Origin: Chiloscyllium plagiosum | Lineage: Eukaryota | Direction: 5' to 3' | Length of the DNA: 59,520 nucleotides | Assembly: GCF_004010195.1 (NCBI RefSeq) | Contig: NC_057759.1 | Location: forward strand, 5,796,936 to 5,856,455 | Shown here: positions 20,350-48,609 of the stretch, piece by piece | How positions within the stretch are numbered: the first letter of the stretch is position 1 | Layout: the number at the start of each line of letters is the position of its first letter | Program-made: the position numbers and the translations under genes | The notes under the pieces: generated by a model | Told to the model about the DNA's origin: nothing | The model's database searches: none | What the model saw: the letters and a program-made list of their open reading frames with translations, nothing else

Positions 20350-21254
20350 TCAACGTTCAATACAGTTTAAAATCGGAGTGAGTGGATATTTCAGCACGTT
20401 TTTCACCTGCTCCCTGAACTTAGTCTGGGTCACGGCATAGATACAAGTGTTGGACGAACAGCTCAGAAGCTCCAACATGAAGCCCAGTTCTGCAACAAGA
20501 CGAGGTAAAAACACAGACCGATAACCTAAATACCACATGCGATACCATACAGAATAGACCATGAACAATGACCACAACAGGATAAAATTTCCCGAGATGA
20601 GAAACAGCAACAGGATAGATTTCTTTCGGCTCTCCAACTCCGGGTCTTTGGCCCTGTCCCCAGTGCCATGAGCCAGGAGTCTCTTCCGGACTCTGCTGCT
20701 CAATACAATGTGCTTGATGGTAAAAATATTAAGCAGAAGAATCAAAACAAATGGAACACATGGGGTTATAATGTGGTGGAGGAACTCAACTGTTGCCCAG
20801 ACTGATGACTCAGTCCGACTGACTAGCACCACACAGAACCAGGGGTTATTCAGAAGTGTATAGGACTTTGTAAACATGAAATACCAGAAAATGTTCTTTA
20901 AAAAGCTCAGGACAGTCACCGTAACCAGTACCACAGCTGCCGTTTTCTCCTGGCAGTATTGAATTTTCAGTTTCTGGCAACAAATGGCCACAAATCGATC
21001 AAAGGTGAACGTGACGGTGAACCAGACAGAACAGTCAGTGACTGCGTAAAGGAGGACAGCGTGGATGTTACATACAGGAACAGAATCAGCCAGCAACTGA
21101 AAGTGTGCCCGATAGACCACAGGGATCTGTCTCAGTATTGCATCGAGGATAATTACCAGCAGGTCCGATGTTGCCATGGCTACCAAGTAGTAAGTGATAC
21201 ATTTCATAAGGCCACACTTTCTCCAAGACAGGATCACGATCGTCAATAGGTTAG
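20350..21254 (-). CDS. GPR139-like class A GPCR, coding exon 2 (TM1 to stop); spliced product 333 aa
   Basis: Acceptor ttgtgctccctcacag|CT. Uninterrupted ORF with hydrophobic segments: TM2 ATSDLL, TM3 Cys and TFDRFVAIC, ECL2 WFC, TM5 TPCVPF, TM7 SNTCIY, helix-8 TKFR, TGA at 20352-20350. 97+905=1002 nt, in frame. Confidence 0.92.
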
Positions 21255-21586
21255 CTGTGAGGGAGCACAATGTCCAGAGGTTAATACATCGAGGTAAGAA
21301 AAGGGTAATCAGTTTGTTACACTAATTATAAAGCTGACATTTGTTTCTGTATCAACTCAGATTATGGATTTGATATGCCTCTCTCATGTCTTTGTATCAG
21401 ACATTGAGACAAGCATTCAAGATATTCAACAGTTAAGTGGAAATTTTAATGGTTTGTACATATAAATCACAGGAAGAAAAGGGCAATTAAAAGACATTGC
21501 AAAACTTGACAATGTTTGTTATTTCTGAGGAAGGAGGAAGGCACCAAATTTAAAGTAAACGTACATATGCTTCAATTTTTAATGCA

Positions 21587-29345: not shown

Positions 29346-29579
29346 TACAATGTCAGATCGAGTCAGTCTGGTTCCGTAGCTGGTGCCTCTGTTTGTCTCT
29401 CCTCAGAAGCTGCCTGAGTGCTTGAATTTATCTTCCCCCCAACAGGACACACTGACTGGTATCACACCGACAACAGTGAGACAGCGAAAACAGAACCATT
29501 GGAAACAAAAAAAAAATTCCCAGACGACATGGGACAAGAACAGTTAGATCTTTAATTGCGAACTTAGAATAAAAATTAC

Positions 29580-29676
29580 CAGGAACTCCAACGGCGGCCA
29601 GGAAGGGGTAGTAGACCCTTTGAAATTTAACCAGGGTACTCTCGGTCTCGATGTCCAAAGTGTGACTCCTGTCCAT
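29580..29676 (-). CDS. GPR139-like class A GPCR, coding exon 1 (N-terminus and first half of TM1)
   Basis: ATG at 29676 gives MDRSHTLDIETESTLVKFQRVYYPFLAAVGVP, followed by G|gtaatt (phase-1 donor at 29579). G+CT from exon 2 gives Ala and restores the TM1 motif GVPANLL. An in-frame TAA lies upstream. Confidence 0.85.
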
Positions 29677-29759
29677 CACTCCTCTTTCTGGGAACACCGA
29701 TCCATCTTAGTGGCAGAGATGTCACTCCCACTGTTAACATGGGACCGTGCTGAAGTACA

Positions 29760-31992: not shown

Positions 31993-32492
31993 NNNNNNNN
32001 NNNNNNNNNNNNNNNNNNNNNNNNNNNNNNNNNNNNNNNNNNNNNNNNNNNNNNNNNNNNNNNNNNNNNNNNNNNNNNNNNNNNNNNNNNNNNNNNNNNN
32101 NNNNNNNNNNNNNNNNNNNNNNNNNNNNNNNNNNNNNNNNNNNNNNNNNNNNNNNNNNNNNNNNNNNNNNNNNNNNNNNNNNNNNNNNNNNNNNNNNNNN
32201 NNNNNNNNNNNNNNNNNNNNNNNNNNNNNNNNNNNNNNNNNNNNNNNNNNNNNNNNNNNNNNNNNNNNNNNNNNNNNNNNNNNNNNNNNNNNNNNNNNNN
32301 NNNNNNNNNNNNNNNNNNNNNNNNNNNNNNNNNNNNNNNNNNNNNNNNNNNNNNNNNNNNNNNNNNNNNNNNNNNNNNNNNNNNNNNNNNNNNNNNNNNN
32401 NNNNNNNNNNNNNNNNNNNNNNNNNNNNNNNNNNNNNNNNNNNNNNNNNNNNNNNNNNNNNNNNNNNNNNNNNNNNNNNNNNNNNNNNNNNN
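31993..32492. other. Assembly gap (500 N)
   Basis: Run of exactly 500 N between a (CT)n tract and a minisatellite. Confidence 0.99.
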
Positions 32493-36287: not shown

Positions 36288-36434
36288 GTATTCCCAGATG
36301 TCACTATCCTGTTCAGTGATGTGGTTGGTTTTACTCGGATTTGCAGTCACATCACGCCAATGCAAGTGGTTTCTATGTTGAACACGATGTATACACTGTT
36401 TGACACCCTGAGTGAGAAGCACAGAGTCTTCAAG
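36288..36434 (+). CDS. Atypical soluble guanylyl cyclase (Gyc-88E-like), catalytic-domain exon A
   Basis: ttttgcag|GTA...AAG|gttagt, 147 nt, phase 0/0: [49 protein letters not shown]. Contains the FSDxVGFT metal-binding motif. Confidence 0.93.
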
Positions 36435-39713: not shown

Positions 39714-39870
39714 GTTGAGACGATCGGAGATGCATACATGGTTGTTGCAGGAGTCCCAGAAAAAACTAAATATCATGCCCACAACATCTGTGACATGGCT
39801 CTAGACATGGTTCGGTCAATAGATCACCTCAAAGATCCATCCACTGGGAATAACATCCAAATCCGTGTTG
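39714..39870 (+). CDS. Atypical soluble guanylyl cyclase, catalytic-domain exon B
   Basis: tacag|GTT...G|gtgagt, 157 nt, phase 0/1: [52 protein letters not shown]. Completes the [10 protein letters not shown] motif with exon A. Confidence 0.93.
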
Positions 39871-39899: not shown

Positions 39900-40380
39900 T
39901 TACTGTGAAGTAGGAAGCACTGGTTGGTGGGAGTGGAAAATTGGAAATTATCTTAGGAATTGATGGGAATGCGAGAGTGTTAGGAAAAATTGGTGGTCAA
40001 TGGGAGTAGGAAGTGTTGGGAATGATATTTGGGATTGCAAATGCTTGATGGTGGTGGTGATAATTGGTGGGAATCAGAATACTGGGAACTATTAGCGGGA
40101 ATATTTTGAGGCACTGGGAATATTGATAATAATACATGGAAGTGCAGATAGTATGTGTGAGCCCAGCCAAAAGGTAGGAGTGAGGATAACAGGTGATATA
40201 GAGGATGTTCGATGGGTGTGGGAATTTTGATGGAAGTAAGAATTCTTACTGGGGATGAGAAATGCTGAGAATGATAGGTGACAGTTGGAACGTTTATTGG
40301 GAATGGAATGTTGGGAATGTTAGGAGGAAGTGAGTTAATTGGTGTGAATGTGGATAACAGGAGGACATATGGACAAGAGG
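39900..40380. repeat. G/A/T-rich (GGAATG/TTGG-like) low-complexity tract
   Basis: C-poor tract just after cyclase exon B. Confidence 0.7.
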
Positions 40381-40384
40381 TGGT

Positions 40385-40830
40385 ATAGAAACATAGTAAA
40401 TACGTGTAGGAGTAGGCTATTCAGCCCTTTGAGCCTGCTCAACCATTCAACATGATCATGGTTGATCATGCAATTTTTGTATGCCATTCCGACCCCCACC
40501 CCCCCTACTCCTTGATCCCTTTAATCACAAGTGCCAAGTCCAGCTCCCTCTTGAACTAATGAACTGGCTCCAACAGCTTCCTGTGGGAGAGAATTCGACA
40601 GGTTCACAACTCTCTGAGTGAAGAAATTCTTCCTCATCTCAGGCCTGAATGGCTTACCCCTTATTCTTAGACTGTGATCCCTAGTTCTGGACTTCCCCAA
40701 CAACGATAACATTCTCCCCCCATCTAGCCCTCCCAATCCCATTAGGATTTTATATGTTTCTATGAGATCCCCCCTCATTCTTCAAAATCCAGTGAGTGCA
40801 AGTCCAGTTGATTCAATCCTTCATATGTGA
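40385..40830 (-). mobile_element. CR1 LINE 3' fragment
   Basis: MRGDLIETYKIL...FFTQRVVNL. Confidence 0.88.
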
Positions 40831-45390: not shown

Positions 45391-46254
45391 CTTCTCCACC
45401 GAAGGTTCACCAGACTGATTTGCAGGATGGCAGGACTGACATATGAGGAAAGATTGGGTTGACTGGGCTTGCACTCACTGGAATTTAGAAGAATGAGGGG
45501 GGAGCTCATTGAAACATACAAAATCCTGATGGGATTGTATAGGCTAGATGGGAAGAATGTTCCTGATGTTGGGGAAATCCAGAACTCAAGGTCACAACAT
45601 AGGGGGCAAGTCATACTGGACTGAGGATCTCTTCACTCATAGAGTTGTGAACCCGTGGAATTCTCTCCCACAGGAAGCTGTTGGGTTGAGTTCATTATAT
45701 ATAGTCAAGAGGGAGCCGGACATGGCGGGGAGGGTGAGAATGGGACACTTGGATTTCATGATCATCCATGATCATATTGAAGGGCCTATTCCTGCACCTA
45801 TTTTCTGTGTTTATCTGCTGACTGTGACATTATAGTTCAATTTCCTTCTACTTTGTCCTTGTGCCTTCAGCAGCTGCAGTAGTTCATTCCTCATCCGACT
45901 GCCTTACCTCGTTGTTAATTGCCCTTCCCACCAAAGTCCAGTACTCACCAAAACCTATAGTTAATCCTCCAGCAGCACTTCAACCGCAAACCAGCTCTTC
46001 TCAAAATGGTCACTCCACTATAGCTTGCCACTTTTAATTCACTCCTGGGCAGCCGCTGGTTGCTGAGCAGATTCCTTTCAGAATCCTCGTCCTCCTCCTC
46101 TATTGCTTCTCAGCAGTGCTCTCTGTTGGATGCTTTTGTACTGTTCATTGACAGCAGCTCTCCTGTGCTCTCCTCCTTGGTCATGTTGACTGAGCCATCG
46201 CCTCCCAGAATCCTCCTCAGTTGCCTCTCAGCAGCACCGTCTGTTGATCAAAGA

Positions 46255-46620
46255 ATGTTTGGTAGGAGTGGGAATTCTTAGCGAGAGTGGGGAATGCTGG
46301 GAATGATAGTGGGAGTGGGAATGTTTGGTGGGAATGGAAATGTTAGGAATGGTAGGTGAGAGTGTGAATAATAGGTGGTATTGGAAATGTTTGGTGGAAG
46401 TTGAATTGCTGGAAATGATTGGTAGGAGTGGCCATGATTGATGGGAGTGGGACTGTTGGTAATGATTGGTGGGAGTGGGAATGTTTGGTGGAAGATGGAA
46501 TGTTTGGTGGAAGAGGGAATGTTGGGAATGATAGGAGTGTCGATGATAGTTGGCATTGAGGATGTTTGATGAGAGTTGGACTGATTATCGGAAGTGGGAA
46601 TGTTGGGAATGAATGCTTGG
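46255..46620. repeat. G/A/T-rich (GGGAATGTTGG-like) low-complexity tract
   Basis: C-poor tract just before cyclase exon C. Confidence 0.75.
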
Positions 46621-46666
46621 AGTTCCACCGAGTTCCAACCTCACTTCCTTTTGTCTTGCTGACTAG

Positions 46667-46776
46667 GTATCCACTCTGGGATGGTAGTAGCAGGGGTGGT
46701 GGGTCACAGGATGCCACGGTTTGGACTGTATGGAGACACTGTCCACACTGCATCAGCCATGGAAAGTAATGGCAAG
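46667..46776 (+). CDS. Atypical soluble guanylyl cyclase, catalytic-domain exon C
   Basis: gactag|GT...AAG|gtaagt, 110 nt, phase 1/0: [37 protein letters not shown]. Phase is compatible with exon B. Confidence 0.92.
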
Positions 46777-48609
46777 GTAAGTCTTCAGCATCTCGAACAA
46801 GGAAATACAATGTGTAACCTGTCCTTGCAATGTAGCCCTTTTAACTTGATATCACTTTGGATAGTCTGCACTGTCCCCTCTCCCAGGCATGTCCATCCTT
46901 CCTGAACTGCTGTGTCGACATGTGAATACTGTACTGTTCTGTTTCTGAACACTTAAGTCTCTTTGTGTTCAATGTTATGATTGCATCTAATGGCAATACT
47001 GAACAAGTCAGGTCTCAGTGTGCAATCTGGCTTTACAGGTCTTAAGTATTATTTTGTCTGTTTGATTACCATGTTAGTCAGTCATTGAATGCATTCACAA
47101 GAGGCTGCCAATGTACTTTTAACAAAAGAGCATATGTTTATTACACAAAAAAGAAAAAAAATTGTCAAAACTAAAAATATATATATAAAAAATAATAATT
47201 TTGAAAAACTTATCTTAAATAAAAAGAAAGATTCAACCTACTTTCCCAGAATACCCTTCACAGACCAGTGAAGTGTTACCCTTATTCGTCACTCTAAAGC
47301 TTGTATGATTAACGAGGTCACCAGTGTTTTGTTTCTGTGACTTGCTGCACATTCACCAGATTTGACTCTCTTTGTCTCTCCTTAGCACACAGGGACTAGA
47401 CACTAACTCATTGACTTTTCTCATTGAAGTCTGAGGAAAAAAAAACAGGGCTTTTGCCAGTTACTTTGTTATTTTGTGCATCTTTCAATATGGATCTATT
47501 CTTCTGAACTGAATCTGCTTCTGTCTCTCTCTAGATTAGAATTCTTAACTGAGTAAACAGTTCAGCAATTATCTACCAGATAGCTTGTCCACTCATTTTG
47601 TAAAATATTTTTTATAGGCTGGAAAAATTCCATGATAACCCATATTTTTGCTTCACTAGGTGCTATCTTGCCTTGACCCAAACGTAACACAAAATATTTT
47701 TTATTCCAAATAGAATGATTTTACATTGATAAAGTCCATCCAAGTGTTACAAAAGTTGACACATCTCTGGCTCAATCAGTGAATGGAACTTGCCAGTTTC
47801 CTTTCACAAACAAATTGTTGTAACAAAACAATTTTCTAATTTTCTCAATATAATTCTCCAATTGTGGAATCAGATATGAATTCACTCTCATTAGGATGCT
47901 GACTTTGCATTAATCCCATGCACACTTGCTATGACTCAGCTGGTAGTATTGGCAGGATCACAGTAGGTGAGCTCCAACTACTGTGACTCAGGGTAATAAT
48001 ATCATTGTCCATTATGAACTCAATCTCTTCTCTCATTGAGCTAAATGCTCAGGTCCGTTTGGGATGGGCAATAAATGCTGACCTAGTCAACAATATTCAC
48101 ATGCCATCCACTAATTTAAATAGAGTCTATAAGGGCATATTTCTTTAATGAAAAACACATCCCTACATTAACTTCATCTACAGCTGAAATTTATCTCCTG
48201 GCCTATTTACAAAATGTGATTAGTGAGTACATAAAAACTTATAGAAGTCATTTTGATAGTTTTTGGGAGAATAGTTTGCAGTCTTAAACACTTCTGTATT
48301 ATCCAATCTGAGTGAACAAAGAACAAAGAAGAACAAAGAAAAGTACAGCACAGGAACAGGTCCTTCGGCCCATGAAGCCTCTGCTGCCACATGACACCTT
48401 TCTATTCTAAAATCATTTTGCCTCCACATGGTTCCGATCCTTCTATTCCCATGCCTATTCGTGTCTCTGTCAAGATGCCTCTTAAGCGTTGCCATTGTAT
48501 CTGCTTCTATCACATCCTTTGTCAACACATTCCAGGCCTTAACACCTTTTGTGTTAAAAAAGAACTTGCCTCTCATATCTCCTTTAAATTTTCCCTCTTC
48601 TGTCCTATG

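Follow-up and report, generated by a model that had tools for sequence, protein, structure and literature searches.

A Gyc-88E-like guanylyl cyclase of jawed fishes that lacks beta-side catalytic residues, and a paralogue as its likely partner

How could a guanylyl cyclase work after part of its active site has been replaced, and which protein would make good the loss? The question is raised by a gene, here called gene A, in a window of 59,520 nucleotides of Chiloscyllium plagiosum (the whole stretch analysed; RefSeq assembly GCF_004010195.1, contig NC_057759.1, positions 5,796,936 to 5,856,455 of the forward strand), in which three exons encode parts of a class III cyclase domain. An earlier note on this DNA had described the third of them as one half-site selectively lost and had predicted an obligate heterodimer partner. 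Gene A is identified here as a jawed-fish relative of Gyc-88E, and its product likely pairs with that of a paralogue, gene B, to give a guanylyl cyclase in which one of the two sites works, as judged by sequence comparison.

Catalytic residues of gene A

Eight residues form the active site of soluble guanylyl cyclase (sGC), namely D486, D530 and R574 of the alpha subunit and E473, C541, N548, R552 and K593 of the beta subunit (PMC3591389; statements cited here to a PMC number or a preprint draw on excerpts of those sources). Positions in gene A are numbered by aligning a shark orthologue (P0006) to human sGC beta1 (6JT0_B), and on this alignment gene A keeps all three alpha-side residues but two of the five beta-side ones (Table 1). 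Exon 1, whose top match among solved structures is sGC alpha1, carries the first metal aspartate in FSDVVGFT (FSD at 36318; the equivalent of sGC alpha1 D486) and an intact triphosphate-binding loop, while exon 2 keeps the Glu473 equivalent, the TIGD Gly, the second metal aspartate (IGD at 39729) and the Arg574 equivalent in IRVG (39864-66). The earlier note was thus right that both Mg-binding aspartates and the IRVG Arg are intact. The 50 amino acids of exon 2 are 100% identical to three carpet-shark records annotated as 'soluble guanylate cyclase 88E-like' or hypothetical.

Exon 3 comprises 110 bases, with AG before 46667 and GTAAGT after 46776, and its translation carries Gly, His and Ala in place of the catalytic Cys, Asn and Arg, as had been read from the letters. 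Gene A further has Tyr at Phe543 and Asn at Lys595, while the equivalents of Glu473 and Lys593 are retained; the proposed loss of one half-site therefore holds for Cys/Asn/Arg and does not extend to these two beta-side residues. A switch of A to an adenylyl cyclase is ruled out, as the Glu is kept and the Lys/Asp pair is absent.

Contigs from two public runs on two samples, possibly the assembly's own source DNA, span 46620-46900 unbroken with no base differences. No second, canonical copy of the exon was found by blastn and tblastn in the window, where the assembly breaks before the next exon, nor in the A records. No RNA data set was listed as containing exon 3, and in two single-cell RNA runs, of which about 2% and 6% were sampled, no reads fell on it, which speaks neither for nor against expression. 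Over the last exon and the 3' region the matches were short repeats only, and the other run covers one 155-base piece, so that this region, too, is uninformative on expression.

Table 1. Cyclase exons of gene A in the window and the altered codons of exon 3
Feature	Position	Strand	Basis and remarks
Cyclase exon 1	36288..36434	+	FSDVVGFT; tblastn 96% to shark orthologue, AG/GT ends; Pfam PF00211
Cyclase exon 2	39714..39870	+	VETIGDAY; splice ends present
Cyclase exon 3 (beta-side half-site)	46667..46776	+	C541G, F543Y, N548H, R552A
Gly codon at guanine-binding Cys541 position	46723..46725	+	Alignment to human sGC beta1
His codon at ribose-binding Asn548 position	46744..46746	+	Alignment to human sGC beta1
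Ala codon at phosphate-binding Arg552 position	46756..46758	+	Alignment to human sGC beta1

Conservation of the altered site

Orthologues were drawn from the best 120 of 514, the best 120 of 1600 and the best 120 of 152 matches, together with cluster look-ups, and the first of these lists falls into two identity classes, near 96% and near 84%. Of the 501 proteins collected, 89 belong to class A and 154 to class B, isoforms and fragments counted, and the motif counts given here omit records without the segment concerned, among them about 7 models of B in which the sequence ends or skips ahead after FGDT. Gly/His/Ala is present in all 83 class A records that contain the exon, and K595N/G596V in 61/61, while on the alpha side the D-G-T loop is found in 80 of 81 records and G-D in 88 of 88; shark A and salmon A share 93% identity over residues 1-660. 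Since Gly/His/Ala is fixed in the orthologues, the changes in exon 3 are confirmed as real, being neither error nor private decay, and the fixation across sharks, rays and bony fishes that the earlier note had put forward as a check is borne out. The matches listed comprise sharks, rays, a chimaera, bichir, sturgeon, gar, teleosts and the coelacanth; no tetrapod, lungfish or jawless fish is among them, though the lists, with 15 members shown per large cluster, extend to amphioxus and molluscs.

The selectivity of the loss was assessed over those columns of the cyclase domain, 88 in number, in which at least 15 of 16 88E-type proteins from invertebrates agree; class A has changed 10 of these columns and class B 5. 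The changes in A fall on three of the five beta-side catalytic positions and on none of the three alpha-side ones (3/5 vs 7/83, one-sided Fisher p=0.0096), as expected of changes concentrated on one functional set, and its other changed columns include further neighbours of the beta side; those in B include the loop Thr and the Gly preceding the second Asp. The replacement residues in A and B are invariant in their turn, which suggests that the dead site has been shaped rather than merely relaxed.

Paralogue B, the candidate partner

An 88E-like paralogue that keeps Cys/Asn/Arg had been predicted and is indeed encoded in this genome, where contig C70575 carries a TIRD exon and, with the same boundaries, an MPR exon of canonical sequence, and further B exons lie on three other unplaced contigs; the FSD exon of B was not found on those contigs. 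Class B has C/F/N/R at the beta-side positions in 118/118 records and keeps both metal aspartates (125/125 and 146/146), while TIGD is replaced by TIRD in 146/146 and GFT by KFN (FSDVVKFN, a D-K-N loop) in 125/125. These fixed alpha-side changes of B itself had not been foreseen. Among 37 hand-picked species pairs, paired by source name with a motif check, both A and B were verified in 36; in the remaining one the A model lacks the exon.

The altered loops point to a loss of the alpha side of B. In a comparison of 80 distant H-NOX cyclases (76 scorable; the rows are related and not independent), the loop Thr is kept in 40/44 proteins with a full alpha-side set vs 1/32 without it, and the TIGD Gly in 42/44 vs 21/32; human beta1 has Asn at the loop Thr position, like B. 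The loop containing GFT forms the triphosphate site (PMC2576301), and the substitution Gly928Glu in human retinal GC1, which affects the same TIGD Gly as judged by the paper's primer, strongly reduces cGMP output (PMC7138296). In the sGC crystal structure 3UVJ, the distance between beta G476 and alpha C595 is that of a disulfide (PMC3591389). Beta position 476 corresponds to the TIGD Gly and alpha Cys595 is homologous to Cys541, so that the Arg of B would lie opposite the Gly of A in the spare site.

Three teleost B models (P0193, P0205 and P0223) join FGDT straight to the next exon and drop the Asn/Arg segment, which reflects either an error of annotation or an alternative splice donor whose use would abolish the beta side. 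The genome also holds beta1 and two beta2-like soluble cyclase genes (C13, C12), with both half-site motifs present in the beta2-like pair.

Origin of the pair

In phylogenetic trees, A, B and two amphioxus genes form a chordate branch within the Gyc-88E lineage, apart from alpha, beta1 and beta2; the split of 88E from the rest received 100/100 in three trees, and the chordate subclade 99/98, 98/97 and 90/99. Labels of the alpha and 89D groups were assigned here from motifs or tree position, and those of beta1 and beta2 were taken from record names. Approximately unbiased (AU) tests, run on 16-row LG+G4 trees (a 57-row mixture-model tree was a quick search only), rejected the placement of A with the alpha clade (p-AU 0.0005 when represented by two alpha-motif records that lack the His, 3e-6 when represented by a record from a tick), of B with beta1 (2e-5) and of A with one arthropod 89D-like record (1e-8), while a common origin of A and amphioxus gene 1 was modestly rejected (0.02, 0.03). 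As A and B lie in the 88E lineage and these kinships are rejected, the split is independent, which agrees with the earlier claim that the pair evolved separately from sGC alpha/beta1.

Amphioxus gene 1, an 88E-like gene (P0122-P0126), has an Arg552-to-Tyr change, and tunicates (P0348, P0352, P0359) possess, besides a near-canonical paralogue, one with Arg-to-Lys and with loops of the TIAD and FA types; both are read as further independent half-site losses. Isoform pairs of amphioxus gene 2 (P0127/P0130/P0341 vs P0136/P0138/P0331) differ only over ~36 residues matching exon 3, with 17-19 differences, one form being canonical and the other lacking Cys/Asn/Arg. Recorded as gene models in three annotation sets, these pairs look like the products of mutually exclusive exons, one of which yields a half-dead subunit.

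Sensor domains and C-terminus

Orthologues match PF07700, PF07701 and PF00211, and thus combine an H-NOX domain, an HNOBA region (PAS/coiled-coil) and a class III cyclase domain in one soluble protein. The heme ligand His105 and the motif YxSxR are found in 61/61 A and 111/111 B records with the region. At beta1 position 145, occupied by Ile in beta1, Tyr is present in 61/61 A and Phe in 111/111 B records. A distal Tyr has been tied to oxygen binding and is absent from vertebrate sGCs, with GCY-37 as a Phe exception (PMC1435932), and the same rule is applied in a bioRxiv preprint (10.1101/2022.02.14.480389). The distal Tyr predicts that A is of the oxygen-binding type, and since B has Phe, oxygen control would most likely be exerted through A. 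In the alignment, A has Val at beta1 Cys78 and Phe at Cys214, which we take to be the two beta1 cysteines tied to nitric oxide (NO) activation. A CaaX-like C-terminus, with Cys at position -4, is usual in both classes (46/50 long A and 95/102 long B records), and both proteins are therefore predicted to be membrane-anchored.

Proposed mechanism and alternatives

In the proposed A/B pair, the working site would be built from the two Asp, the Arg and the GFT loop of A together with the Glu, Cys, Asn, Arg and Lys of B, a combination from which the product would be cGMP. The second site would be dead from both sides, with the Gly/His/Ala of A opposite the KFN loop and TIRD Arg of B. That Arg may fill the space left by the Cys-to-Gly change and could pair with the Glu kept in A, and such a plug would favour A/B over B/B. 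We infer that a homodimer of A has no activity, that A binds B and that B needs A; the scheme predicts that neither homodimer is active and that A and B together are.

Modelled as a complex, ray A and B (coiled-coil and cyclase regions) reached 0.82 vs 0.25 for the best control, with runs sharing at least 94% of contacts and a partner predicted local distance difference test (pLDDT) value of at least 88; B residues 519-524, including the TIRD Arg, fall within the interface. The mark applied was reached by 51/78 solved pairs and 2/108 mismatched pairs. The model passes because A and B resemble solved sGC dimers, so that it demonstrates likeness only and carries little weight: the dimer modelling suggested in the earlier note gave a pair above the mark and did not distinguish which family member binds.

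Several observations weigh against the pairing scheme. None of the eight canonical residues (both Asp, Arg574, Glu, Cys, Asn, Arg and Lys) is missing from B, and as its two Asp and Arg are present, the disabling of its alpha side is a matter of deduction, which is the chief weakness of reading the pair as obligate. A keeps Glu473 and Lys593, the Gly position of GFT is variable in active relatives (Thr in insect 88E), and the beta1 and two beta2-like genes of the genome also supply Cys/Asn/Arg. The sisterhood of A and B is weak (75/54, 82/71) and is no longer recovered once the tree includes long-branched rows from tunicates and amphioxus, and the distal Tyr predicts oxygen binding without proving it.

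The retention of all eight residues would suit a B that is an active homodimer like Gyc-88E, with A as an optional tuner of activity, gas response or location, and fly Gyc-88E indeed forms active homodimers (PMC1435932) and shows higher activity when co-expressed with 89D subunits (PMC11568450). We consider this unlikely, as the Gly-to-Arg and Thr-to-Asn changes fixed in B are the pattern of alpha-dead subunits, the equivalent Gly-to-Glu change cripples retinal GC1, and the Arg would occupy both nucleotide pockets of a B/B dimer. It is rather improbable, too, that A depends catalytically on beta1 or beta2 instead of B, or has a role without catalysis, either as a heme sensor or as a dominant-negative sink. 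The interfaces of sGC catalytic domains are promiscuous (PMC3591389), the beta1 and beta2-like genes have intact Cys/Asn/Arg, and the complex model is unable to separate family members; however, A and B share their range among the matches listed (jawed fishes and coelacanth, no tetrapod), whereas beta1 and beta2 persist in tetrapods (beta2 in crocodilians), the strict retention of the alpha-side residues of A argues for catalysis, and the changes in B mirror those in A. Decay of a dying duplicate or assembly error, which the scatter of the gene over five scaffolds and a decayed exon copy on C34 might suggest, has a negligible probability and is already refuted by the fixation in orthologues, the agreement of the two runs, the shark-salmon identity and the splice sites of the window exon, which the C34 copy has lost.

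Comparison with known cyclases

Gene A shares its lineage with Drosophila Gyc-88E and Manduca MsGC-beta3, as well as the H-NOX, HNOBA and cyclase architecture, the heme His, YxSxR and the distal Tyr. Gyc-88E possesses two complete half-sites and is active as a homodimer (PMC1435932), whereas A lacks Cys/Asn/Arg, and B lacks the distal Tyr and has altered alpha-side loops; by the sequence criterion of two complete half-sites, A is thus not a Gyc-88E proper. A parallel in arrangement ‌is fly Gyc-88E with Gyc-89Da/Db, where an 88E-derived subunit likewise has a defective beta-side exon and depends on a partner, and co-expression boosts activity (PMC11568450). The origin of A is independent of that system, and the fly partner retains its two half-sites, in contrast to B with its changed alpha side.

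Like NO-sensitive sGC alpha1/beta1, the A/B pair would have one working and one dead pseudo-symmetric site, with A in the alpha role and B in the beta role. The lost residues differ, as sGC alpha1 keeps Cys and Asn and beta1 loses Asp and Arg outright, and the heme His, which alpha-type records have lost, is present in A as well as in B, with Tyr in A at Ile145 of beta1. A resembles a conventional alpha subunit in supplying D486, D530 and R574 without a working beta side, yet it is neither a member of the alpha clade nor orthologous to it. A would work like an alpha subunit while belonging to the Gyc-88E lineage, and its loss of beta-side residues is ancient and fixed. In C. elegans, GCY-35/GCY-36 and GCY-31/GCY-33 are beta-like atypical sGCs that form alpha/beta-like heterodimers and bind oxygen (PMC1435932). 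These pairs are nematode-specific splits. Their beta-role members lose the metal aspartate, which B does not, and similar motifs of the FTK type were seen among the sequences compared.

Gene A in the assembly and other features of the window

A search of the genome with the orthologue P0006 located the remaining exons of gene A on scaffolds C14, C18117, C89007 and C37; together the exons match residues 2-765 of the full-length orthologue with identities of 72-100%, and the last residues before the stop are CQLL, a CaaX-like box. The gene is thus spread over five scaffolds (C14, C18117, C89007, C50 and C37), with one exon inverted on C14, which is most simply explained by mis-scaffolding, an assembly fault. 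The window itself has N gaps at 748, 15325, 18130 and 31993. A decayed partial duplicate at C34:15305500-15307000 is 75-83% identical to window positions 40000-40387 and 46253-47171, and its copy of exon 3 has lost both splice sites, which the window exon retains. Upstream of the gap at 31993, a 323-codon open frame on the minus strand (20353-21321) matches 7tm_1 (E 7e-15) and is a rhodopsin-family G protein-coupled receptor (GPCR) exon, while a short minus-strand frame (29431-29706) resembles by eye the first exon of a rhodopsin-family GPCR and has no Pfam match.

Implications

Vertebrate soluble guanylyl cyclases are regarded as receptors of NO without oxygen binding (PMC1435932), and the oxygen-regulated type is known from insects and worms. 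Atypical cyclases of the fly have been described (PMC2990333, PMC11568450), and a pikeperch 'gyc88e' transcript, of unspecified paralogue, is high in brain (PMC12673963). No description of the fish A/B pair was found in the literature searched, which mostly excludes subscription journals, so that an earlier account is possible. Databases give both genes one name, masking that one of them is predicted to be unable to work alone.

The A/B pair would be an independent replay of the split from homodimer to heterodimer, achieved with other residues and with a partner in which no textbook catalytic residue is missing. A more speculative extension, which we regard as possible but doubtful, is that jawed fishes possess a membrane-anchored guanylyl cyclase with two hemes, in which A reads oxygen by its Tyr, B with its Phe may read NO, and the spare site is plugged by the Arg of B mimicking guanine. 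If this is true, amphioxus arrives at the same half-dead subunit by swapping one exon, and fishes would have a direct vertebrate oxygen sensor of the kind found in flies and worms, which disappeared in the transition to air breathing. To our knowledge, the molecular sensor for acute oxygen sensing in fish is unsettled. The A/B cyclase would be a candidate for this role, and the pair conserved in sharks, bony fishes and the coelacanth provides named genes with which acute oxygen sensing can be tested.
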